From the NCBI GenBank assembly GCA_028865725.1, contig JAGWJP010000001.1, positions 377,954-441,953 on the forward strand: a stretch of DNA of 64,000 nucleotides, written 5' to 3'. This document shows, one piece after another, positions 8,217-58,585 of the stretch. Both the position numbers and the translations under genes were made by a program. Position 1 is the first letter of the stretch; each line of letters opens with the position of its first letter. Under the pieces are notes generated by a model. It was given only the letters and a program-made list of their open reading frames with translations, did not search any database and was not told the DNA's origin. The stretch is from Patescibacteria group bacterium. Its GTDB lineage: Bacteria > Patescibacteriota > Minisyncoccia > UBA6257 > JACRHW01.

Positions 8217-8570
8217 TTATGCAGCGGGTGGAGTAAGATTGGGGGGCAAGGGGGTAAATGAGTTTGAAGGAGGTGGAGTTGGGACGGAAGGCGCGGAAAC
8301 ACATGCTCCGGTGCGGCTCCCTAAAACTTCTAGTACTGCATAGACGAGACCTTGCGCGAACAAAATAACCGCAAGGCCTATCACGCTCCACTTAAGCGTT
8401 TCAGCACCCTTTTTCACACCTTGGCCGCCTTGCGAGGTGAGAAATTGAAACGCGCCTATAATGATATATACCACGACAAGTGCAATCCCGATATTTCGAA
8501 TAAATGCCGTGATATTCGCGATGATATCGCAAATTGTTTTTCCTGCGAGCGGATCGATAGCGTTAAACAT
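8217..8570 (-). CDS. small two-TM protein (pilin-like or holin-like), Pro-rich tail
   Basis: 117 aa; two TM helices separated by a short GGQGVKKG loop; C-terminal Pro-rich tail; no signal peptide or Cys motif. Confidence 0.4.
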   Translation of the reverse strand: MFNAIDPLAGKTICDIIANITAFIRNIGIALVVVYIIIGAFQFLTSQGGQGVKKGAETLKWSVIGLAVILFAQGLVYAVLEVLGSRTGACVSAPSVPTPPPSNSFTPLPPNLTPPAA

Positions 8571-8580
8571 ACTGTACAGA

Positions 8581-9093
8581 TTATTTCTTGTGTGAAAAAT
8601 TAGTAATTACTTTTATCTCACTGTTAGGAACAAAGTGTATGGCATCATCTTCGCCTTGTAATACTGTATTTTGGAAGTTTATTTCTTTCACCACGCCACT
8701 CACCCCTGCAAGAGTGACCGTGTCCCCCACTTCGTAAAATCCACTAAGAAGAAGCGAAAAACTGATTGCAAAGTTTTTAAGCGTCGATTGAAAACTAATT
8801 CCCGCAATAACTCCCACAACCCCCGCTCCCGTAAGAAGGGCGGTGATGTTGATGTGGAATTGAACGAGAATGACAATAATGGTTACAACCCATAGTACTA
8901 TTGTTGCGATACTGTCAATGAATCCAAGGATAGTGACAAGACGTTTTTTGTGAAGTAGTTGCGGAGTCGCGTGACGTACATGAAATAATACCCACGCAAG
9001 CGGACGTATGAGTTGTTTCGCTACATAAAATATCAACAGAATAATGCCGATGCGTACCGCGATATTATCAAAAATAGTGAGGTAGGATTCCAT
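8581..9093 (-). CDS. small-conductance mechanosensitive channel (MscS family)
   Basis: TALLTGAGVVGVIAGISFQSTLKNFAISFSLLLSGFYEVGDTVTL matches the MscS TM3/beta-domain signature. Confidence 0.7.
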   Translation of the reverse strand: MESYLTIFDNIAVRIGIILLIFYVAKQLIRPLAWVLFHVRHATPQLLHKKRLVTILGFIDSIATIVLWVVTIIVILVQFHINITALLTGAGVVGVIAGISFQSTLKNFAISFSLLLSGFYEVGDTVTLAGVSGVVKEINFQNTVLQGEDDAIHFVPNSEIKVITNFSHKK

Positions 9094-9167
9094 TGAGTGG
9101 AAGATTTAAAATGGTGTACTACTGTATGGGTGGTTGTTTCTAGTATACTATTTTTTGTAGTAAGTTT

Positions 9168-16614: not shown

Positions 16615-17100
16615 ATGAAAAATTTTTATGTTATTGCGGCAGGGTTGATATTGTTTGGCATTTTGATTTTAATCTTTGCGTTTGTTCGACCCGCCGGCGA
16701 ACCCATTAAATCGTCCCCGCAATTCACCGAGACCTCATCATCTTCATCACATATATCTTCATCAACTTCTCGCGATGGACTTGGTATTCAGGACGTGGTG
16801 GTGGGAACAGGGACAGAGGCAAAAAATGGAGACAAGGTCGTAGTTCATTATCGAGGGACTCTTGAAAACGGGACCCAGTTTGATAGTTCTTATGACAGAA
16901 ACCAGCCTTTCTCTTTCACATTAGGCGCAGGTATGGTTATTCGGGGCTGGGATCTTGGTGTGTTGGGTATGAAGGTGGGGGGTGTGCGCAAACTTACTAT
17001 TCCCGCCTCGCTTGGATACGGTGATGCCGGCGTGCCGGGAGTAATCCCCCCCCGCGCAACGCTTCTGTTTGAAATCAAATTATTAAGTGTTCATCAGTAG
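16615..17100 (+). CDS. FKBP-type peptidyl-prolyl cis-trans isomerase (membrane-anchored)
   Basis: N-terminal TM; VVHYRGTLENGTQFDSSYDRNQPFSFTLGAGMVIRGWDLGVLGMKVGGVRKLTIP. Confidence 0.8.
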   Translation: MKNFYVIAAGLILFGILILIFAFVRPAGEPIKSSPQFTETSSSSSHISSSTSRDGLGIQDVVVGTGTEAKNGDKVVVHYRGTLENGTQFDSSYDRNQPFSFTLGAGMVIRGWDLGVLGMKVGGVRKLTIPASLGYGDAGVPGVIPPRATLLFEIKLLSVHQ

Positions 17101-23544: not shown

Positions 23545-25767
23545 TTATTGTCCATTCGAGGGAACAAGAGTCAATGTTATTGAAAGCTCCCTTGGATCGA
23601 TTGAGAAGTGGGTTCGATAGGTATCAAGCCCGGTTTCTTTAAAGACATACCCTGTGGGCGCGTTGATAGTCAGGTCGAGTACGCTCGTGACGCCCGATTG
23701 TTTTTGGTACGTGAGATTATAGATTGCATTGCTGAGGGGTGACGCAGAATTTGCAAGGAATCGAGTACTATATTGCAAGGTAATTTGTTGATGCTCCCCC
23801 GCCGCAAGCACGGACCAGCCCGCGTAGACTTTTTTCCCTTCCTCGGGATATGTTTCAAGCCCGTGGGTACCTGCCAACGTGACAGCGCGCGATTCGCTTG
23901 CAGCCAACAGAGGATCGGGCGCGGTATCAGGATTTGTTTTTGCGTAGGTGTGTGGAGTGAGCCCGGCAGCGTAGGACAACGCGGTGTTTAGGGGAAGATA
24001 CGCCCTCACATAATCCTTGTTCGTACTTCTCCATAATGCAAACGAGGCTTGGTCTCCGTTGTGGGCTCGTGACACGATAAGGGTGTGGCTCGCGGTACCA
24101 TCTGAACGCAAATCAATCGTATCATTTATTTTCTGCGTAATTACGTAATCACTCTTTCCTCCTGCGACGTTTGAATCAATAAATGCAAGATAATCTTCGA
24201 GCGCACTTGAAGCTGTAATGTGCCCATCGTACCCTAATGTACGCAATGATTCTGCCGCTTGCGTGAGGTCGGGGTTTATCATCGCAATTTGTATTTCTTT
24301 TTCGTCAAGCATAGCCATTACGACAGAAAATATGTCTTGTTTGTGGGGAAGCGCCGAAAGAGCAGTTAAAAAGCGCGGGATAAAAATCTTTAAGATACGT
24401 TTCGGATCTCCGTACGTACTATTATCTCCTCCGAATTCAACAGTATTTTGAACGCTTTCCATAAAATTATCGCTCGAGATCGACATGTTATATTCTGGCA
24501 TTTCGATCGGTCCAGTTTTTTTCAAAAGTTCTGTTACTAATTTTGTATTCACTGCGATAACCCCGTCTATGGTGCGGTGCGGATTTGTGTCTAGTTTTGA
24601 TGCTTCAAAAAACTCAGCGGCTTTTTGGGCAGAAGTAGGAAAATCGAAAAACCAGTTTGCGTCCCGTGTACCCCAAGTAGGAGTGATATTTTGTAACGCT
24701 TTTGGTGGCGTTATTTTTTCAGCCAATTGACCGTCCAAATCATAGATATTCCGAATATCCATAGCAGTAATTTTTCCGTTCTGAAGGCTTACGAGCATAT
24801 AACTTCCCCAAAAACCTCCCGTCGCACGCAGTTCTGAAGGATTTTGAAATGCAATAAGATACGTCCTTGGTGTATTGTGATCTCCCAGCGCGCGCGCGAG
24901 CATTTCAAGTGCGAGATGGCTATCGTTTAATTCATTTTGAAGTGCAAAGTATTGATTTTTCAGGCTTTGTGACCAGTCTTTCATGCCGGGCAAAACAGAC
25001 AGATCAGCAAGGTTAGTAATAATCTTTGGAGTTGCATGAGAAATGGTGATTAGCTTAGTGTCGATGTTTTTTATAGTCTGGATGTTTATTCCTGCACCAA
25101 ATGCATTTGTTACGCTTGAATTTAGAAGAGAGTTCATGTCATCCGCGATTGTTAACGAAGTCGCTAACATAGCGCGGAGCTCATCGACTAGAGAAAATGG
25201 AGGCGCATACAATATTTTTGCTGCCGATGCCTTATTAAGTAATATCTCGAGAGCATTCAATGAGGATTGTGCAACGGTCAAATGTTCTTTGCCTGCTTTG
25301 AAATTAAAATGCTTAAAGTCAGTAATTCCTTCTTCGATATTTTGATAGACATCTTTTCCCAAGGCCTGCAGGCGATCGTAGTGGTCTACCACCGATACTT
25401 TTACTGCGGCACTATATGCGATAACGAGAATAACGCATCCTAGCACGATCGGCTTGATATGTGATATACGGAACAATCGATGGATCGTTCGATTTATTAC
25501 AATTTTTTTAGCGGGATTCGGACGTTTAAACAGCTGTGACGTAATGTTTTTATTGCGAAAAACAATATCAGAAAATAATATGTTTCCTTGCGAAACACTA
25601 CATTCTCGAGCACGAATAGGCCCTAAATTAATAACTGGGTTTGGGATTTTCGTGCAAATCATATCTAAAAACCCATCTTTCATGGGTCTCACGTCAAAGA
25701 GAATTTGAAGAACAAGACTACGTTGTACCACAACCAGGCGGTGTTTTAATTGAATAATGCAAAACAA
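23545..25767 (-). CDS. DUF4012-like envelope protein (hypothetical)
   Basis: N-terminal TM, then a large domain with NPSELRATGGFWGSYMLVSLQNGKITAMD, resembling the E.R..GG core of DUF4012; adjacent to glycosyltransferases. Confidence 0.4.
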   Translation of the reverse strand: MFCIIQLKHRLVVVQRSLVLQILFDVRPMKDGFLDMICTKIPNPVINLGPIRARECSVSQGNILFSDIVFRNKNITSQLFKRPNPAKKIVINRTIHRLFRISHIKPIVLGCVILVIAYSAAVKVSVVDHYDRLQALGKDVYQNIEEGITDFKHFNFKAGKEHLTVAQSSLNALEILLNKASAAKILYAPPFSLVDELRAMLATSLTIADDMNSLLNSSVTNAFGAGINIQTIKNIDTKLITISHATPKIITNLADLSVLPGMKDWSQSLKNQYFALQNELNDSHLALEMLARALGDHNTPRTYLIAFQNPSELRATGGFWGSYMLVSLQNGKITAMDIRNIYDLDGQLAEKITPPKALQNITPTWGTRDANWFFDFPTSAQKAAEFFEASKLDTNPHRTIDGVIAVNTKLVTELLKKTGPIEMPEYNMSISSDNFMESVQNTVEFGGDNSTYGDPKRILKIFIPRFLTALSALPHKQDIFSVVMAMLDEKEIQIAMINPDLTQAAESLRTLGYDGHITASSALEDYLAFIDSNVAGGKSDYVITQKINDTIDLRSDGTASHTLIVSRAHNGDQASFALWRSTNKDYVRAYLPLNTALSYAAGLTPHTYAKTNPDTAPDPLLAASESRAVTLAGTHGLETYPEEGKKVYAGWSVLAAGEHQQITLQYSTRFLANSASPLSNAIYNLTYQKQSGVTSVLDLTINAPTGYVFKETGLDTYRTHFSIDPRELSITLTLVPSNGQ

Positions 25768-29364: not shown

Positions 29365-29757
29365 GGGTTGCGGGTGGACAGTCGCGAATTAAGGAAACTT
29401 AATTTGAGGAAAGTCCGGACACTCATTGTTATTCGCAAGAGTAGCATAACAATAACGGGTAACACCCGTCGCCCGCCCTGGGCGGATAGAGGTGCGAACA
29501 GAGACGTCGCAATCGAAAGAACGCGACACCCTGGGAATTCTTAGGGTGAGCTTCTGTGGTAACACAGAAGGTGCAACGGCCAAATCCTTATTGGGTGCAA
29601 GGTCGTGCCCAGCACCACTTTTATGCTTAAAGAAAGCATAAAAGTGGTGCTGGGAGTGCCGCTACGATTCCTTCAAGTAATTGAGGAACTCAGATAAATG
29701 GCTGTCGGTCCGATGTTACATCGGACTACAGAATCCGGCTTATAACCCACAACCCTA
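29365..29757 (+). ncRNA. rnpB: RNase P RNA (bacterial type A-like)
   Basis: Conserved P4 strands GAGGAAAGUCCGGAC and ACAGAAUCCGGCUUAU; AGGGUGA element; P1 pairing GGGUUGCGGGUGG with ACCCACAACCC; long perfect apical hairpins. Confidence 0.8.
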
Positions 29758-29766
29758 ATAAAAATG

Positions 29767-48345: not shown

Positions 48346-49545
48346 CTATTTCAGAATGCTGGTTACTACTCCGGCACCTACAGTTTTACCACCCTCACGG
48401 ATTGCGAAACGTTGTTTTTCTTCAAGTGCCACAGGAGAAATAAGTTTGACTTTAAATTTAATGCTATCACCCGGCATTACCATCTCTACTCCTTCCGGCA
48501 AGGTTACCTCACCTGTCACATCCGTTGTGCGAATATAGAACTGCGGTTTATAGCCTTTAAAGAATGGGGTATGCCGTCCTCCTTCTTCTTTCGTAAGGAT
48601 GAGAACCTCTGCCTCGAATTCTGTATGAGGAGTTACAGATCCTGGTTTTGCAAGCACCTGACCGCGCTCTACATCTTCTTTTTTAACACCGCGAAGAAGA
48701 ATACCGACATTATCGCCCGCACGCCCCTCATCAAGGGTCTTTTGGAACATTTCAACACCCGTGACGACTGTTTTCTGGGTAGGACGAAGACCAATAATCT
48801 CAACTTCTTCGTTTACTTTTACAATACCGCGCTCTACGCGTCCCGTGACTACGGTGCCACGTCCTTCAATCGTAAAGATATCTTCGATGGGCATCAAAAA
48901 TGGCTTGTCAGTAGGACGTACAGGCTCAGGAATATAAGAATCTAATGCATCCACGAGATCAAGAATAGGTTTGGTCGCAGGATCATCGAGCGAGGTTGCA
49001 TTTAATGCTTTTAACGCGGAACCACGAATAACCGGCACCTCGTCTCCAGGAAATTCATACTTGTTCAAAAGCTCGCGCACTTCTGTTTCGACGAGATCGA
49101 CAAGCTCTGGATCATCCACCATGTCCGCTTTATTCAAAAAGACCACAAGTGCGGGCACCCCTACTTGACGTGCAAGCAAAATATGCTCGCGAGTTTGCGG
49201 CATAGGGCCGTCCGCGGCAGATACCACAAGAATTGCGCCATCCATCTGCGCGGCGCCGGTAATCATGTTCTTGATATAGTCCGCGTGGCCTGGTGCATCA
49301 ATGTGTGCATAGTGGCGCTTTTCTGATTCGTACTCAGAGTGGTGCAAGGCAATCGTAATTCCGCGCGCCCTTTCTTCTGGTGCGTTGTCGATCTGATCAA
49401 CCGACTCTTCTTTTGCCACGAGTCCTTTAAGATGAAGGACGTGCGTGATTGCCGCCGTTAAGGTTGTTTTTCCATGGTCAACGTGACCAATGGTGCCCAC
49501 GTTGACGTGTGGCTTTGTGCGCTCAAATTTTGCTTTTTCTGCCAT
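48346..49545 (-). CDS. tuf: elongation factor Tu
   Basis: [23 protein letters not shown]-loop GTPase; full EF-Tu. Confidence 0.95.
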
Positions 49546-49628
49546 TGTGGTTGTAGTGTTGCGAATAAAAAGTAACGATGAGTTACTCTTGTATCCTTAA
49601 GTTACTCTTATTAATAGCTACCTGATTA

Positions 49629-49656
49629 AGTTTAGCGATATTTTAAATAATGTCAA
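49629..49656 (-). promoter_or_regulatory. putative sigma70-type promoter for tuf
   Basis: Minus strand TTGACA, 16-nt spacer, TAAACT, about 75 nt upstream of the tuf ATG. Confidence 0.35.
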
Positions 49657-49679
49657 GGCCTTATCATGTGTGAGGTAAT

Positions 49680-49875
49680 GAACCTCCCCGGGCTGACGCC
49701 CGGGGTTTCTTTGCGTACCTTCGGGGAGCCAAAGAAACACGGTCGCAAATAACCATTCGGTTATACTGAAGGCTTGCTGGAGGTGCTTTAGACCCTCTGT
49801 CCGCCCTGGGCGGACTCCGGACGGGGATGCATCCCCCACCCTTACGGGCAAGGTATTCATGCTTCCGGTTCTTAT
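49680..49875. ncRNA. GC-rich hairpin-dense element, putative structured ncRNA of unknown identity
   Basis: Series of perfect hairpins: CCCCGGGC-ugac-GCCCGGGG; a UUCG-tetraloop hairpin nested in UUUCUUUG/CAAAGAAA; GUCCGCCC/GGGCGGAC; GGGGAUGCAUCCCC. It lies between the kinase terminator and the tuf promoter; no plausible ORF; strand undetermined. Confidence 0.3.
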
Positions 49876-49904
49876 AAAAATCCGCACGCGAAGCGGTGCG
49901 GATT
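49875..49904 (-). terminator. rho-independent terminator of Ser/Thr kinase gene
   Basis: Minus strand AAUCCGCAC-cgcuucgc-GUGCGGAUU followed by UUUUUA. Confidence 0.6.
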
Positions 49905-49926
49905 ATGGAAACAACGACATAGGAGA

Positions 49927-51351
49927 TTACCAAATTTTTTGGGTAAGAACCTTCAATACTTTTGTACGAAACGGTACGCATGTTTCGGGTGGTTTCTGTA
50001 TTTCTTGAGGAACCGATACCATAAGCGATGCCTTCTCGCCTCGATCAATCCGCTCAATACCGTCCCGCGCCTCGAGAAGAATATCAATATTATTGTCCAC
50101 GCTATTTGGATTAGCGCACAAAAGCGCATTTTGAAATGTCTTGCGCGCGTGTTCTGTTTCTCCAAGCAGCTCTTCTATTAATCCGCGTGCGACGAAGAAA
50201 TAGAGAGGTGGAGTACAACCCTCTTTGATGCCTACATCCTTATACTCTAACAAATAAGTAATAGCCCCTTGGATTCTTTGCTTGAGCGTTTCTACTGTTA
50301 CGCGCGCGTGTTCTGGTACTCCATATACAGCTGCACTCACTGCTGCGGCAACCCAAACATTCGCAGGAGGAGAAAGTGCGACTGTTAATCGCAAAGGAGC
50401 TTGTCCGTGGCGGCCATACTCTAGAGAAATGTTCTGCCAAAAAAATCTAGTGCCAAACACGCGTTTCATGCTTTTGACAAAGCGTTGCCACTCTTCACGC
50501 GTAATTACTTTTTCCGTCTTCTTCAGAGAAGGGTGGTCCTCCCCGCGTGTGCGAATCGCCTCTTTCATTGCGTGGGCACTTTCATACCGCGCGGTTTTTT
50601 CAAGCTTGGTTGCGCGTACGATCACCGGCACGAGCGGAATCTGAAGCTTGTTGAGTTCTACGTGTGCCTCATCAAACGGAATTGGGTTTGCCCCCGTAAG
50701 AAGTATCTCCATGGTACGCCCAAGACAGTAGAGATCGCTCTGCGGTCCCGTAAAACCGCTGACGTGCTCAGGAGATGCAAATTCAATCGTCAAAACGCTC
50801 GTATGCTGAGTTCCCTTGCTCTTTCCTGCGCTGTAACACGCGATGCCGAAATCGATGAGCACAATGGTACCATCCTTCTTGCGCACAAGATTGCTCGGCT
50901 TAATATCCCGGTGGAGTACAATAGGCTTTTCATCGCGTGCAGTATGGAGATATTCAAGAATAGAAAGAACTTGAAGTGCCATATCGGCAACTTCATCGTC
51001 GGACAAGGTGCCTTTTTTCTCTAAAATTTCTTCAAGCGTTTCTCCTTCGATATATTCCATCACAATGCAATAGCGGTCTCGTTCCTCGTCATAAAACGAA
51101 TCGTAATATTTCGGAATACCTGGATGTTCTAATGTGCGAAGCAATTCACACTCGCGCGTCCATGTTCGCACAAGGTCAGCACGCGGGTCTTTGCCCTGCA
51201 CGCCATCAGACAATGTAATAGTTTTCAATACACATAGTCTGTTGTCCGTATTGCGTATCACAAGTATGGTATGCCCCATGCCGCCTTCACCCAGATGATG
51301 GACTTGCGCGTAGTTCGCAAAGCTTCCGTAAGCGTTTTCTTGTGTAGCCAC
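49927..51351 (-). CDS. Hanks-type Ser/Thr protein kinase with about 200-aa C-terminal domain of unknown function
   Basis: LGEGGMG...VLK (Gly-rich loop and Lys); HRDIKPSNL catalytic loop; DFG; SPE-like; no TM segment. Confidence 0.8.
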   Translation of the reverse strand: MATQENAYGSFANYAQVHHLGEGGMGHTILVIRNTDNRLCVLKTITLSDGVQGKDPRADLVRTWTRECELLRTLEHPGIPKYYDSFYDEERDRYCIVMEYIEGETLEEILEKKGTLSDDEVADMALQVLSILEYLHTARDEKPIVLHRDIKPSNLVRKKDGTIVLIDFGIACYSAGKSKGTQHTSVLTIEFASPEHVSGFTGPQSDLYCLGRTMEILLTGANPIPFDEAHVELNKLQIPLVPVIVRATKLEKTARYESAHAMKEAIRTRGEDHPSLKKTEKVITREEWQRFVKSMKRVFGTRFFWQNISLEYGRHGQAPLRLTVALSPPANVWVAAAVSAAVYGVPEHARVTVETLKQRIQGAITYLLEYKDVGIKEGCTPPLYFFVARGLIEELLGETEHARKTFQNALLCANPNSVDNNIDILLEARDGIERIDRGEKASLMVSVPQEIQKPPETCVPFRTKVLKVLTQKIW

Positions 51352-51500
51352 GCCTATCTCTCCTTTTCATTGTGGAATGAACTGCGATAAGTATAACACA
51401 AGATAAGTAGGAAGTCAAAATTGTTCTTTTATGAGAATCTTGTGGTACAGATAAAAACATGGTACGTTTGATGGGAACTACTGGGCACTGGAGGCAACGA

Positions 51501-51830
51501 ATGCACAGTAAGAGCGAATTGGGTGCAGGAGTAATATTGCTCAGCATGCTTGCCTTGCCGCACAGTCACCCCGACTATGACATCGCCCTGCTGCGGAGGA
51601 GATTCTATGAATGGGAACGTACGATGATCACCCTTGGTTGCATTAAGTACTGGCGCGGGGAGGTCTCCGAGCCTATTGCTCCGCATGCGTGGACAAAACT
51701 GCTTCTTGAGGTATTTTGGAATGAAACCGTGCGGGAACTCCCCGTGCTTGATCGCGCGCATCTCCCCACCGCTGAACTTGCATGCATCAAAGACGCGCTT
51801 TTTGATTCTATATTAAGACGAGACAGTTAG
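51501..51830 (+). CDS. hypothetical protein
   Basis: ORF with a GGAGG 7 nt upstream of an internal ATG (MHSKSELG...); followed by a bidirectional terminator; overlapping antisense ORFs judged less likely. Confidence 0.3.
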   Translation: MHSKSELGAGVILLSMLALPHSHPDYDIALLRRRFYEWERTMITLGCIKYWRGEVSEPIAPHAWTKLLLEVFWNETVRELPVLDRAHLPTAELACIKDALFDSILRRDS

Positions 51831-51848
51831 CTCTTACGAAGCCTCAAG

Positions 51849-51882
51849 TAAAAAAAGCCGCCCCATACAGGGCGGTGTTTTT
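51849..51882. terminator. bidirectional rho-independent terminator
   Basis: AAAAAAA-GCCGCCC-cauaca-GGGCGGU-GUUUUU. Confidence 0.6.
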
Positions 51883-51893
51883 AATGTATCCTC

Positions 51894-52073
51894 TTACTCT
51901 GTCCAAACGAGTTCTTCGCTGTCGTCCGTGCGTCTCCCCCACCGTGTACGCCCCTTATCAGAATGTTCGCAATCGATCAATCCCTTTTCTAAAAGTTCCT
52001 GAAACTCTGTGGGTTTGACATATTCTCCGCTTTTTCCCATTTTCAGTTCATCCAGCATCATTTCACGGTTCAC
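51894..52073 (-). CDS. small hypothetical protein (about 59 aa), GTG start with strong RBS
   Basis: AAAGGAGGG 7 nt upstream of GTG; hand translation ...NREMMLDELKMGKSGEYVKPTEFQELLEKGLIDCEHSDKGRTRWGRRTDDSEELVWTE; ends just before the terminator; missed by the ATG-only ORF track. Confidence 0.3.
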   Translation of the reverse strand: MNREMMLDELKMGKSGEYVKPTEFQELLEKGLIDCEHSDKGRTRWGRRTDDSEELVWTE

Positions 52074-52263
52074 TCTTTTTCCCTCCTTTGGTTTGTATGT
52101 GCCTACGGTAGCTCGACAATTTTTTCGATACGCCCTTCTGCCTCAAGAATAGCAACCTTTTTCCCGTTTTGATATGTCACTTCAGCAGGAAATCCATATT
52201 GGATTGATGCACACAGGATGAACGCGCACCACAAAAATAGCACATCACGTGCTATTTTGTCAA

Positions 52264-52533
52264 TTATCGGTAGGGGAGGTCATCGAGAGAAAGCTTATCG
52301 GAGGGAGCAGGCTGCGGAGACAGCGCGCGTTGCTCAGGAAGACTGCGAAGAACATCGATCGCATGCAGCATTTTTTCATACTCCCGCCAGCTTAATACAA
52401 TGAATTCCGGATCGCCCGCCCCATCAAGCACAACCGCTTTTCCGCTGCCATACTCCAAAATCTTTTTAATCTTCGCGAAAGTATCCACAAATTTAATATA
52501 CGTAATAATACGAATCAACACGAATGCGCGCAA
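52264..52533 (-). CDS. Phd/YefM-like antitoxin-family protein (orphan)
   Basis: FAKIKKILEYGSGKAVVLDGAGDPEFIVLSWREYEKMLHAIDVLRS resembles the Phd/YefM N-terminal fold; hexamer repeats (ACGAAT-like) lie upstream of and within its 5' end. Confidence 0.4.
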   Translation of the reverse strand: MRAFVLIRIITYIKFVDTFAKIKKILEYGSGKAVVLDGAGDPEFIVLSWREYEKMLHAIDVLRSLPEQRALSPQPAPSDKLSLDDLPYR

Positions 52534-52604
52534 GAAAAGTGAGAAGATTGCAAAATTCGTTTCTCGTATTCGTAGTCAGTCGTATCATTCGTATAGTGGT
52601 ATCT

Positions 52605-54731
52605 TTATAATTTTTTTCCAGAAATAATCTGTTCCGCTACGCTTTTAGGCGCTTCCTCGTAACTCCCAAACTCCATGGTAAACGTACCCCTTCCCTCGGT
52701 CATAGAACGAAGTTTCGTGGCATAACCAAACATTTCAGAGAGCGGAACCTTGGCATCAATGACCTTAATGTTCATCCTATCTTCAATAGATTCAATTCTT
52801 CCTCGTTTTGCATTGAGATCTCCCGTAACATCTCCAAGAAATTTAACAGGTACCGTAACTTGAATTTTCATAATAGGCTCAAGGATCACAACCCCCGCAC
52901 GTTTTGCGGCCTCTTGGAATGCCATAGAACCTGCGATTTTGAATGCTGCTTCTGAAGAATCAACTTCGTGGAATGAACCGTCATAGAGGGTTACTGCCAC
53001 ATCCACGACTGGATACCCCGCCACGACGCCTTTTGCAATAGATTCTTTGATACCTTTTTCCGCCGCGGGAATGAACTCCTGGGGAATAGCGCCTCCTTTG
53101 ATGGCGTTCACAAACTCAAAACCCTTCCCCCGCTCAAGCGGTGCAATGCGAATACGCACATGACCATACTGACCCTTTCCTCCCGACTGGCGAATATATT
53201 TTCCTTCTGCTTCTGCCTCTCCTCTGATCGCTTCTTTGTAGGCAACTTGAGGACGTCCCACATTTGCTTCCACTTTAAACTCGCGAAACATACGATCCAC
53301 GATAATCTCAAGATGGAGCTCACCCATTCCATAAATCAGAGTTTCGTTAGTATCAGGATCGCTCTTAATACGAAAGGTGGGGTCTTCTTGAGCAAGACGA
53401 CGCAATGCGATTCCCATTTTTTCCTGATCAGCTTTTGTTTTAGGTTCGATACGCACGGAGATAACAGGTTCGGGGAATATAATTTTTTCTAATACAATGG
53501 GCGCATCAGGATCACACAATGTATCTCCGGTAATCGTTTCTTTAAGCCCCACAACTGCCCCAAGGTCACCTGCATACATCTCCTCAATTTCTTCACGATG
53601 GTTGGCGTGCATGCGCACCAAGCGCCCCACGCGTTCTGTTTCTCCCTTTGTTGAGTTCAGTACGTAGGTACCGCGTTTCAACACTCCGGAGTAGACACGC
53701 ACGAAAATAAGACTTCCAATGAAAGGATCTGTTGCAATTTTGAATGCAAGTGCTGAAAGAGGCTCCTCATCGCTTGGATGACGCTCGCTTTCACCGCCAG
53801 TCTTTGGGTCCTCCCCCTTAATGGCCGGGATATCCGATGGCGCAGGAAGATAATCAATGACTGCATCGAGTACAAGCTGGACTCCTTTATTTTTGAGAGC
53901 AGAACCGCACAATACCGGAACAATAGTACCTGCAATAGTTGCTTTCCTCAATGCGCTACGCAACTCATTTTCACTAATTTCTTTTCCTTCTAAATACTTG
54001 GTGAGCAGGGCATCATCTTGTTCTACAATTTTTTCGATAAGATTATGACGATGTGTTTCTGCTTCTGCAGAAAGTGATGCAGGAATTTCTGAAATGGTAA
54101 TGCGTTCTCCATGCTCCCCTTCAAATCCTACTGCTTTCATGCGAATAAGATCTACCACGCCGCTAAAATCCGCTTCCAAGCCAATCGGCAACGAAATAGG
54201 TACCGCGTGTGGCGTAAGGCGCTCATGAATAGACTGAAGAGAATGCTCAAAGCTTGCCCCCATACGATCAAGTTTGTTGATAAAGCAAATACGCGGCACA
54301 TGATACTTGTCTGCTTGGCGCCATACGGTTTCCGATTGAGGCTCTACTCCCGCCACCCCATCGAACACCACAACACCACCATCCAATACGCGCAACGATC
54401 GTTCTACCTCTACAGTAAAATCAACGTGACCCGGCGTATCGATAATATTAATGCGATGTTCATGTTCTTTTTTTATCTTTTCAAGATCCGCGGCGCCCTC
54501 CTTAAGATATGAGGGTGTCCAAAAACACGTCGTCGCTGCAGCGGTAATCGTAATACCGCGCTCCTGCTCCTGTTCCATCCAGTCCATCACGGCGGCCCCT
54601 TCGTGTACCTCACCAATTTTGTGTGAAATACCCGTATAGAACAAAACACGCTCGGAAACAGTTGTTTTTCCTGCGTCGATATGTGCAATAATGCCGATAT
54701 TTCTATATTTCTCTAAAGGATATTGTCTCAT
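52605..54731 (-). CDS. fusA: elongation factor G
   Basis: [22 protein letters not shown]; 708 aa five-domain EF-G. Confidence 0.95.
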
Positions 54732-55951: not shown

Positions 55952-55997
55952 TTAAAAAATAGAAATCGTCTAGAATTTTCCAGACGATTATTTTTTA
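55952..55997. terminator. bidirectional rho-independent terminator
   Basis: AAUCGUCU-agaauuuucc-AGACGAUU flanked by A and T runs; overlaps the stop codon of the 55988..56413 gene. Confidence 0.5.
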
Positions 55998-56413
55998 TTT
56001 AGTTTCCTCTCGTGATTCTTTGGTGCCACAGGGTTGCCCTCGCGATCGAACTCACAAATAAGTTTAAGTTTGAATGAAAGTGTGGGCGCCTCACCCCCAT
56101 GAAGAGAACCACACAGGATCCCTTCGTAATCAATTACTCGGTACAGCCGGACAAGGCAAGGAGCCGGATTCATGGCGCATTTGTTTTGCGCCTGCGCAAT
56201 ACGCTTCAAATCATTCAAAATGTCTCGTAGGATGCTTTTATCTGTGTGAGGATCCACGAGACACTCTAACTCTCGTTCATACCGCTGCCCTTCGCGTCCC
56301 TCAACGGTTGTGGTTGCGATCTCTGTATTGCAATGATCCCACGTCCATTGAGATTCTAATACATAAATCGCATAGGATGGCACCATAACAACGTCTCCCT
56401 CGACACCGTCCAA
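55988..56413 (-). CDS. hypothetical protein
   Basis: 141 aa ORF with its own terminator; no recognisable domain. Confidence 0.4.
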   Translation of the reverse strand: MDGVEGDVVMVPSYAIYVLESQWTWDHCNTEIATTTVEGREGQRYERELECLVDPHTDKSILRDILNDLKRIAQAQNKCAMNPAPCLVRLYRVIDYEGILCGSLHGGEAPTLSFKLKLICEFDREGNPVAPKNHERKLNKK

Positions 56414-56613
56414 CCCATGCGATATTAACAGTTACCGACTACCACGTCAAACCTTCGTGTAAAGTCTCAATGCGTCACAATAAAGCGGCTTACTCGAATG
56501 CCATTTTAGGTGCTCGTTTTATACAAGCTATCATATATCAAATACTAGATACGCATTTCGCGTGGTTGTATTTTCTGTTCACTCAGTTACACTTAGTACA
56601 TAATGATAACCTT

Positions 56614-57471
56614 ATGGCCAGAGAATCTATTAATTTTCACAACAATAGAGAAGAACCTTCCACGTCATACTTATACGCCCCCTTTCTTCCTCGCGAAAAA
56701 CAGGGCGTATTTAACGAGCTTTCACAAAATCTTGGGATGATTGTAGACCATCTCCATACCCTGCCCGGATCGTGCTATCATATGGTCGAAACAGAAGAGG
56801 GGGCGATAAAAGGTTCTGATCCGCTTATTGTGATACCTGAAGACGTTGAAGGCCAAATAAGACGTTTGCGTACTGAAGGCGAAATAGTATTGCGCGGCGA
56901 ATCCTCACTACGCATTGAACACATCCCAAGTGCGCCCGCCTTCGAATCCCTGCTACGCGAATGGGTCCGCGTAATAACCGAGCACCTCGAAAGCCATAAT
57001 GATTTTGAACTTGTCTTTGGTGAAAAACTCACAAACGCCATGTGGCACGGCAATGAATATCGCAATGATAAATACATAACGATTGAACTAATGCTTGATC
57101 ATGCGAAAAAAACCATTACGGCAAAAATCATGGATGAAGGCGATACGCTTATCAAGGATATCATTCGCATCCAGACGCACGAAGATGCTACCCAAGCAGA
57201 ACAGCTTCTTTCTCATGAACGAGGCGATGAAATCACACGCGGCTTAGCAGAAGAATACAATCTCGCCCCGCATGAGGTAGAAGAGTACGCGGGAATATGG
57301 CGACATGTCTCAACGGGAGCCACCCACCAGATACCAGTATCTACTCCCGATGCAAGAGATAAAGTGGTCCATGCCGATGCAGAAACCGCAATATCTCGTA
57401 ATCCGGATTATAAAAAAATAGGGACAGTGGTAATACTTCACTGGCCTTATGAAAAACCCGCTGCTGCATAG
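56614..57471 (+). CDS. GHKL-type ATPase / anti-sigma-factor-like serine kinase (RsbW/SpoIIAB-like) with extra N- and C-terminal regions
   Basis: ELVFGEKLTNAMWHGNEYRNDKYITIELMLDHAKKTITAKIMDEGD fits the HATPase_c N-box (E..NA..HG) and G1 (D.G) pattern; start chosen at MARESINF with CATAAT about 11 nt upstream. Confidence 0.45.
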   Translation: MARESINFHNNREEPSTSYLYAPFLPREKQGVFNELSQNLGMIVDHLHTLPGSCYHMVETEEGAIKGSDPLIVIPEDVEGQIRRLRTEGEIVLRGESSLRIEHIPSAPAFESLLREWVRVITEHLESHNDFELVFGEKLTNAMWHGNEYRNDKYITIELMLDHAKKTITAKIMDEGDTLIKDIIRIQTHEDATQAEQLLSHERGDEITRGLAEEYNLAPHEVEEYAGIWRHVSTGATHQIPVSTPDARDKVVHADAETAISRNPDYKKIGTVVILHWPYEKPAAA

Positions 57472-58362: not shown

Positions 58363-58585
58363 CTCTTACCAGGAAACCCCAATGACTCAACAAATTCATG
58401 AACCCGCTTTGTACCTATTCCTTCATTTCTATTCGGAATAGGTTCTAGAATCTGAGCACGAAAGTTCTCCCGTGCAAGAGGGGTCTCTACAGTACGGCGC
58501 GAGTTTGGTTCATTATTATTAATCGCAACAAAAGTGTGGTGCTTTTATATATATTTTTTTACTGACCCCTCATCAACCTTTTCAG

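Follow-up and report, generated by a model that had tools for sequence, protein, structure and literature searches.

In Escherichia coli and most bacteria the str operon reads rpsL-rpsG-fusA-tufA, and the junction between fusA and tuf is usually held to be among the most stable in bacteria. What, then, has separated the two genes by about 3 kb of gene-bearing DNA in the 64-kb stretch of a Patescibacteria group bacterium that we analysed here (64,000 nucleotides of contig JAGWJP010000001.1, assembly GCA_028865725.1; hereafter the window)? An earlier note, made from the letters of this stretch, had proposed an insertion splitting the operon, possibly an integrated regulatory or defence-like module. 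Comparison with relatives points to a different answer: with a probability of roughly 70%, the fusA-tuf spacer has been inherited within a narrow clade of Patescibacteria (Parcubacteria-type) and acts as a slot for accessory genes, instead of being a single recent insertion. We see no new type of system in this locus.

The spacer extends from 49546 to 52604 (3,059 bp), and the six-frame open reading frame (ORF) list and public gene calls agree on its flanks, confirming the earlier placement of the fusA end at 52605 and the tuf start at 49545. rpsL and rpsG lie upstream of fusA, all four genes are co-oriented, and the S10 operon follows tuf. Between fusA and tuf are four genes, one of them (orf109) on the opposite strand, and two terminators. 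The parts that had been picked out before (a kinase, small ORFs, a bidirectional terminator, an antitoxin-like gene, a GC-rich element and a promoter-like sequence) were all recovered at the positions given for them. Identical proteins occur in two Patescibacteria metagenome-assembled genomes (MAGs), on contigs of 260 kb and 463 kb (GCA_028868355.1, contig JAGWUQ010000001.1), suggesting that an assembly artefact is unlikely. Read from fusA towards tuf, the features are:

52605-54731, minus strand: fusA, encoding EF-G (708 aa), the upstream limit of the spacer, identified by its ORF and Pfam EF-G domains
52264-52488, minus strand: orf74, 74 aa, from a clade-restricted family of 72-91 aa that always lies directly after fusA
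52234-52258, minus strand: perfect 10-bp hairpin flanked by A/T, just after the orf74 stop, identified as an inverted repeat
51894-52073, minus strand: orf59, genome-specific occupant of slot A (defined below), with a Shine-Dalgarno-like AGGAGGG upstream
51857-51876, both strands: bidirectional intrinsic terminator with T-runs on both strands, common to the convergent orf59 and orf109 units
51501-51830, plus strand: orf109, from a clade-restricted family of ~110 aa, in opposite orientation to fusA and tuf
51390-51418, minus strand: promoter-like site of the kinase gene, TTGACT-17-TATACT, with an extended -10 TG and 10/12 consensus matches
49927-51351, minus strand: Hanks-type Ser/Thr kinase, 474 aa, with the kinase domain at residues 14-257 (50581-51312) and a C-terminal domain at residues ~261-474 (49930-50571)
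49868-49915, minus strand: likely terminator of the kinase unit, a hairpin (AATCCGCAC...GTGCGGATT) followed by TTTTTAT, identified by inverted repeat and fold, with the hairpin and T-run proper at about 49904-49876
49664-49872, listed on the minus strand: GC-rich cluster of 5-6 consecutive hairpins, GC 0.57, situated after the terminator of the kinase and ahead of the tuf promoter
49629-49656, minus strand: tuf promoter, TTGACA-16-TAAACT, conserved in the clade, as is the TAATCAGGTA block that comes after it
49546-49628, minus strand: 5' leader of tuf, with a conserved hairpin and a TTTTTATTCG block about 20 nt before the ATG
48346-49545, minus strand: tuf, encoding EF-Tu (399 aa), the downstream limit of the spacer, with rpsJ and the S10 operon coming next

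Relatives were found by a protein search with EF-G, and their genomic contexts were fetched and compared by tblastn and all-against-all BLAST. The EF-G matches were 86% identical (P0129-P0132), 77% identical and, in many cases, 72-76% identical (including Wolfebacteria, Brennerbacteria and Paceibacterota). Extra loci comprised four from metagenomes, obtained through an alignment of the orf73 family, to which orf74 belongs (the scan patterns were poorly specific), and one locus pair. The set of close relatives, with EF-G 80-86% identical, consists of about nine contigs (L082, L083, L085, L086, L087, L088-L090 and L095/L096).

In all sampled close relatives fusA is followed by an orf73 homologue and then by variable genes, with tuf after these wherever the contig is long enough. 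The spacer measures 861 bp in L085, 1,734 bp in L083, 2,847 bp in L082 and about 3,360 bp in L090, compared to 3,059 bp in the window, and the layout of the clade is fusA -> orf73 -> slot A -> bidirectional terminator <- orf110 <- orf139 -> slot B -> tuf promoter -> tuf -> rpsJ. An orf73 homologue is present in every close-relative locus (54-85% identical), orf110, the family of orf109, in all but L085 (38-77% identical within the family), and orf139, whose copies are 64-77% identical to one another, is missing from the window and L083. The EF-Tu proteins of these relatives are 88-91% identical to the tuf product of the window. A terminator of the form AAAAACACCC-N4-GGGTGTTTTT is kept in five relatives, and positions 51857-51876 are its equivalent in the window. 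The ratio of nonsynonymous to synonymous substitution rates (dN/dS) is 0.03-0.2 for orf73, orf110 and orf139 where dS was computable, dS being otherwise at or near saturation, suggesting that all three are genuine, long-maintained genes; among the relatives' copies of orf110 the ratio is 0.08-0.20, pairs with the window's orf109 being saturated and uncomputable. The interpretation of the 3 kb as one insertion or an integrated module was therefore not borne out, since the split itself is ancestral to the clade, and so are both small genes (orf74 and orf109), the bidirectional terminator and the promoter of tuf. When synteny was compared, as the earlier note had advised, fusA and tuf were contiguous in no close relative: the backbone is conserved, as expected of an ancestral lineage feature, whereas the gene cargo differs.

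It is this cargo that makes the spacer accessory-looking and variable, in agreement with the earlier impression, as it changes from genome to genome in two slots. Slot A, from orf73 to the bidirectional terminator, is empty in L085, contains a bestrophin-like gene in L083 and L088-L090, a long GC-rich hairpin in L082 and L087, and orf59 in the window. Slot B, which reaches up to the tuf promoter, is empty in L083 and L085, contains ORFs of 168 aa and 114 aa in L082 and one of 157 aa in L086, and in L090 (7671-9250) holds a 300-aa ORF (8234-9136) of 62% GC on a contig of 43% GC, for which no family match was found. In the window it is occupied by the kinase unit and the GC-rich hairpin cluster. 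The slot cargo of L090 and L082 is clearly foreign in composition: its ORFs have 52-62% GC, the genomes about 43%. None of the close relatives has the kinase, orf59 or the GC-rich element of the window; they carry other cargo in the same slots, and a tblastn search of the window for leftovers of orf139 or of this other cargo found nothing. The window-specific DNA amounts to about 2.2 kb, of which ~1.8 kb covers the kinase unit and the GC-rich element (about 49664-51450) and ~0.4 kb surrounds orf59; the rest of the 3-kb spacer is apparently ancestral.

The slot-A hairpin of L082 (10523-10640) and L087 (1958-2080) is ~110 nt long with a 14-bp closing stem (ACCTACCCCTCTCC / GGAGAGGGGTAGGT). The two relatives share it with minor differences, and the L082 copy has a fold z-score of -5.57; a palindromic element and a small RNA are candidate identities for this hairpin.

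To place the 3-kb spacer against a wider background, species-representative genomes were scanned with EF-G, and the matches listed came from distant phyla only (<=64% identity), the window's own genome not being one of them. Among these matches, tuf lies directly after fusA in 41 of the 53 loci with enough downstream sequence, at a distance of 28-1178 nt (median 116 nt), and the other 12 have no tuf within at least 5.8 kb downstream of fusA. A gene-filled spacer of 3 kb is thus unusual among the matches listed; separation of fusA from tuf is in itself not rare there. Compared to the canonical str operon, the window retains the gene order and strand, with the S10 operon after tuf, but it has a gap of 3,059 bp instead of the median of 116 nt in the 41 diverse bacteria, fills it with four genes (one on the opposite strand) and two terminators, and provides tuf with its own clade-conserved promoter. 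Sister lineages of the clade depart from the canonical order in another way: in relatives with EF-G 75-77% identical (L084, L091 and L092, the last from Wolfebacteria GW2011_GWC1_37_10) the order is rpsL-rpsG-fusA-rplM-rpsI, with no tuf within 6-8 kb, suggesting that this part of the Patescibacteria has rearranged the 3' junction of fusA repeatedly.

Six aligned sequences (the window, L082, L083, L085, L089 and L090) show no variation in the promoter block of tuf, TTGACAT...TAAACTTAATCAGGTA, or in part of the leader, and the same six share an invariant TTACTTTTTATTCG block about 20 nt ahead of the tuf ATG. The earlier note was thus right that tuf has a promoter-like sequence of its own (TTGACA-16-TAAACT), but its recent acquisition is contradicted by the invariance of this sequence across the clade. 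No obvious Shine-Dalgarno sequence was seen in the tuf leader, which could be an attenuator or a translation element. The leader stem varies between genomes (AGTAAC/GTTACT versus AGTAGTGC/GCATTACT); a covarying structure was considered for this hairpin and set aside, one compensatory pair being weak support.

Taken together, slots A and B would have gathered different genes in different genomes, and the lineage of the window would have received orf59 in slot A and a self-contained kinase unit with the GC-rich cluster in slot B, and lost orf139. Judged from the sequence signals, rpsL-rpsG-fusA-orf74 would be read as one transcript, of which the perfect hairpin after orf74 is a possible weak terminator; a promoter-like TTGACA-18-TATTTT (52263-52234) overlaps this hairpin. 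The orf59 unit and the opposite-strand orf109 unit would both end at the shared bidirectional terminator, the kinase would form a transcription unit of its own with promoter, ribosome-binding site and terminator, and tuf with the S10 operon would be driven by tuf's own conserved promoter.

Several points weigh against an inherited slot filled differently in each lineage. The direction of change was deduced by parsimony from about nine contigs and no rooted genome tree, and the kinase could be ancestral and repeatedly lost. The native-like composition of the kinase gene means that it may be old, or derived from a donor of similar GC. No mechanism was found for the entry of cargo into the slots, and this reading does not account for the GC-rich hairpin cluster. 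In addition, the transcription units rest on promoter consensus scans, in which 7 promoter-like sites were counted versus 5.1 expected from shuffled sequences.

Residues 14-257 of the kinase match Pfam Pkinase (PF00069) with 141.4 bits (cut-off 31.7, E 4.5e-41), and the translation contains all catalytic motifs (GEGGMG, the beta3 lysine in CVLK, HRDIKPSN, DFG and ASPE), so that the protein should be catalytically active as far as its motifs predict. A Pfam scan revealed no PASTA, FHA, TPR or other further domain, and no hydrophobic stretch of transmembrane length was found; the kinase is predicted to be soluble. The NCBIfam PknB_PASTA model (NF033483) gave 122.9 bits, on the kinase domain only, relative to a cut-off of 450, and no NCBIfam equivalog cut-off was reached. 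Its GTG start is preceded by an AAGGAG ribosome-binding site. Among 5.8 billion clusters the closest homologues reach 35-43% identity, confined to the kinase domain, and no orthologue was found there beyond the two identical MAGs.

The remaining half of the protein, noted earlier as an unassigned domain and proposed for a check against housekeeping families, matches no Pfam family (residues ~260-474). An exhaustive phmmer search of 1.84 billion representatives with these 214 residues gave no match at E <= 0.001, to a housekeeping family or otherwise; it gave no self-match either, so the kinase's own cluster representative evidently lacks this region. A single-sequence AF2 model was mostly helical but unusable (pLDDT 39.8). 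Presumably this helical domain senses a signal or recruits a substrate. It contains a 35-nt direct repeat (50130-50164 / 50289-50323, 77% identity, 159 nt apart) encoding two (P/T)EHAR(V/K)T segments 53 residues apart, which hints at a duplicated helical unit. Codon usage, which the earlier note had wanted compared between insert and flanking genes, did not mark the kinase gene as foreign: its Kullback-Leibler divergence of 0.08 equals that of fusA, and its GC content at third codon positions is 0.449, compared to 0.390 ± 0.050 for 66 ORFs of the window (+1.2 standard deviations).

The GC-rich structured element that had been noted earlier was borne out downstream of the kinase. Positions 49687-49836 are the 150-nt segment of highest GC in the 64 kb (0.607, z 3.24), and the cluster folds better than shuffled sequences on the minus (z -3.64) and plus (z -2.73) strands. 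A search against Rfam 15 gave nothing at threshold, the best match being a single copy of CRISPR-DR29 (25.5 bits, cut-off 39, E 0.021). tRNA, tmRNA, signal recognition particle (SRP) RNA, 6S RNA and a CRISPR repeat were considered and rejected, as the element is single-copy, has no repeats and matches neither ARAGORN nor Rfam models at threshold. There is no second copy in the window or the fetched loci, the cluster is not found upstream of tuf in relatives, and its pattern was not found on viral contigs. With a terminator on one side and a promoter on the other, the cluster may be left out of the transcripts of both neighbours; its candidate identities are a small RNA gene, the palindromic-element footprint of an insertion event and an insulator. 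Two more 150-nt stretches of ~60% GC (z about 3), at 23859-24008 and 16913-17062, are on a par with the regions of the tRNA and RNase P.

At the other end of the spacer, orf74 begins at the GTG at 52488, as evidenced by the gene call and the alignment with relatives. The earlier note had described an orphan Phd/YefM-like antitoxin gene here; a gene is indeed present and is weakly Phd/YefM-like, but the longer ORF from 52533 that had been assumed is unsupported by the alignment. In L085, L090 and L095 the start of orf73 abuts the fusA stop. The orf73 family has ten members in the database of 5.8 billion clusters, none with a recorded Pfam domain, by a method that needs shared 5-residue words and could let very distant relatives escape. 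All profile matches are below curated cut-offs: PF02604 on orf74 and its family gave E 0.04-0.1 (0.043 for orf74; 14 bits, cut-off 29.8) and PF18506 on the family E 0.003-0.017 (15-18 bits, cut-off 27), and PHROG 2268 matched the family at E 8e-4. Alignment of the orf73 profile with E. coli YefM (sequence per PDB 2a6q) by hhalign gave a probability of 17% over the beta2-beta3-alpha3 region. An AF2 model from the ten-sequence alignment (pLDDT 74.7, about 84 over residues 1-50) displays a helix (3-13), two strands (17-21 and 27-32), a second helix (34-49) and a disordered tail, and Foldseek returned no match to this model at E < 0.45. The C-terminus of the family (52264-52290 in the window) bears an invariant L-[ST]-L-x-D-L-P-[LY] after a variable proline-rich linker, which looks like a short linear binding motif.

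The alpha-beta-beta-alpha core of orf74 thus bears a weak resemblance to Phd/YefM proteins. Like these antitoxins (E. coli YefM, 2a6q; phage P1 Phd, 3hs2), orf74 has a disordered C-terminal tail and gives weak profile matches; unlike them, it lacks the first beta-strand of the fold and stays below all curated thresholds, and its family is fixed behind fusA, has no adjacent toxin gene and is confined to one small clade. No Doc, YoeB or RelE-type toxin gene was found among the neighbouring ORFs of the window or of about 10 loci, and in L085 the gene after orf73 is on the opposite strand. The lack of an adjacent toxin, the fixed position behind fusA and the tail with its conserved motif suggest that orf74 falls outside the canonical antitoxins; it is probably a regulator that binds DNA or a partner and is expressed together with EF-G.

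The small ORFs that the earlier note could not annotate have no family match on closer search either. orf59 has no homologue in the relatives' spacers, no family match and forms a cluster of one. orf109 is 38-41% identical to the members in L082, L083, L086, L087 and L090, and its family has no Pfam, NCBIfam, PHROG or PDB match; a DUF2290 assignment (PADLOC, E 7e-4) was rejected given that only one of six family members matched. The orf139 family, carried by relatives, has an invariant C-x2-C...C-P-N-S-x-E-C pattern that suggests a zinc ribbon. Its matches to desulfoferrodoxin N reflect the CxxC zinc-ribbon motif, and that identity was rejected, leaving the family with no Pfam, NCBIfam or PHROG assignment; a profile search found no PDB match. 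For neither the orf110 nor the orf139 family were relatives found on viral contigs.

What else could account for this arrangement? That the kinase has been placed beside tuf and fusA to phosphorylate EF-Tu and/or EF-G and throttle translation, for example in episymbiont dormancy, with the spacer as a dedicated regulatory module of the str operon, is an unlikely explanation, although it has precedents: the Hanks kinases PrkC and YabT of B. subtilis, PknB of M. tuberculosis and PrkA of L. monocytogenes phosphorylate EF-Tu and EF-G and reduce translation (PMC6213207). The window kinase shares with these enzymes the Pkinase fold and all catalytic motifs, appears soluble and lies immediately upstream of the tuf promoter, but it has no transmembrane segment, PASTA or FHA domain and carries instead a 214-aa C-terminal domain without homologue. 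By analogy, EF-Tu and EF-G are plausible targets. However, no relative has a kinase in this slot and the genes found there are unrelated, which makes the position beside tuf more likely incidental and not in itself a sign of function; furthermore, a Pfam scan identified no PP2C phosphatase or FHA partner in the spacer, and tblastn found no second kinase-domain gene in the 64-kb window. Rather more doubtful is a recent integration, of the whole spacer or at least of the part with the kinase, as a mobile or anti-phage module with the kinase as an abortive-infection effector of the Stk2/PD-T4-6 type. Its kinase does match the PADLOC hidden Markov models of the anti-phage kinase PD-T4-6 (E 4.6e-49, 165 bits, residues 14-228), mad6 and a phage Ser/Thr kinase PHROG, the slot is variable with foreign cargo in relatives (62% versus 43% GC in L090), and the 200-nt GC-rich element stands out from the rest of the window in GC (z 3.24). 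But the PD-T4-6 match is generic to the kinase domain, given that five arbitrary, unrelated Hanks kinases (FHA-linked, cyanobacterial and clostridial ones included) score 180-215 bits (E 1e-55 to 1e-64), more than the window kinase; this assignment was rejected, and the defence-like module of the earlier note has no specific support. The PD-T4-6 models do not cover the C-terminal region, there is no defence-island context, no NCBIfam equivalog cut-off is reached, and no other spacer gene has a PADLOC match above chance level. Signs of mobility are likewise missing: family scans of the spacer ORFs found no recombinase, integrase or transposase, direct repeats at the flanks that might be att sites are at chance level (<=19 nt), no target-site duplications or terminal inverted repeats surround the kinase unit, and the only tRNA of the window is at 58585. 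No relatives of the kinase were found on viral contigs, and as an island sign base composition is mixed, the kinase being as native in codon usage as fusA, the GC-rich element an outlier and the relatives' cargo atypical. With integration hotspots and plasticity slots the clade spacer shares conserved flanks (fusA-orf73 and the tuf promoter) and variable cargo of partly foreign composition; it differs in its small size (0.9-3.4 kb), in having no recombinase, tRNA or att repeats, in cargo not recognisable as defence, and in its site within a super-operon of ribosomal-protein and translation-factor genes.

Far less probable is a type II toxin-antitoxin system, with orf74 as antitoxin and either orf59 or the kinase, by analogy to the Doc and HipA kinases, as toxin. 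The disordered tail of orf74 with its conserved motif is as in antitoxins, and the toxin paired with Phd, Doc, phosphorylates EF-Tu. But orf73 genes lie behind fusA in all relatives, which have neither the kinase nor orf59, and in none of the loci is there a neighbouring gene like Doc, YoeB or RelE. Two genes and the bidirectional terminator separate orf74 from the kinase, which has its own promoter and is Hanks-type, not Fic/Doc or HipA, while orf59 lies 190 nt downstream of orf74 and matches no toxin family. That a chimeric contig or a binning error has produced the arrangement can hardly be believed, even for a window from a MAG: besides the two contigs with identical proteins, the backbone of fusA-orf73, orf110 and tuf promoter-tuf recurs in independent NCBI, JGI and ENA assemblies, and composition is continuous across the junctions. 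An inherited accessory-gene slot thus remains our preferred reading. A more ambitious reading is a long shot: orf73, translationally coupled to EF-G, antisense orf110 and the Zn-ribbon orf139 would constitute an unrecognised translation-linked module, extended in the window by a kinase whose C-terminal domain would target EF-Tu/EF-G and switch translation off for dormancy or abortive infection in an episymbiont.

On the preferred reading of an inherited slot, the fusA-tuf junction is plastic inside the ribosomal super-operon of these small-genome Patescibacteria and a recurrent breakpoint in the wider group, a point to consider when such genomes are annotated by synteny or their bins are checked. 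The locus yields three clade-specific protein families without known function under purifying selection, together with a catalytically intact kinase whose C-terminal half has no detectable relatives. If this kinase acted on EF-Tu or EF-G, a minority possibility on present evidence, it would offer a rare means of regulating translation in an episymbiont that has not been cultivated.

Beyond the spacer, a second variable slot lies at 55988-57471 of the window, between a conserved Peptidase_M50 gene and rpsL. It contains a 333-aa ORF with an RsbW-like HATPase_c_2 domain (29.2 bits, cut-off 27.4) and a 141-aa ORF without family, and is empty in L082 and occupied by an unrelated 209-aa gene in L083. 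The RNase P RNA (class A) of the window, at 29366-29758, scores barely above the Rfam threshold (105.8 bits versus 100) and includes a perfect 21-bp hairpin at 29608-29654 that may be a lineage-specific insertion.

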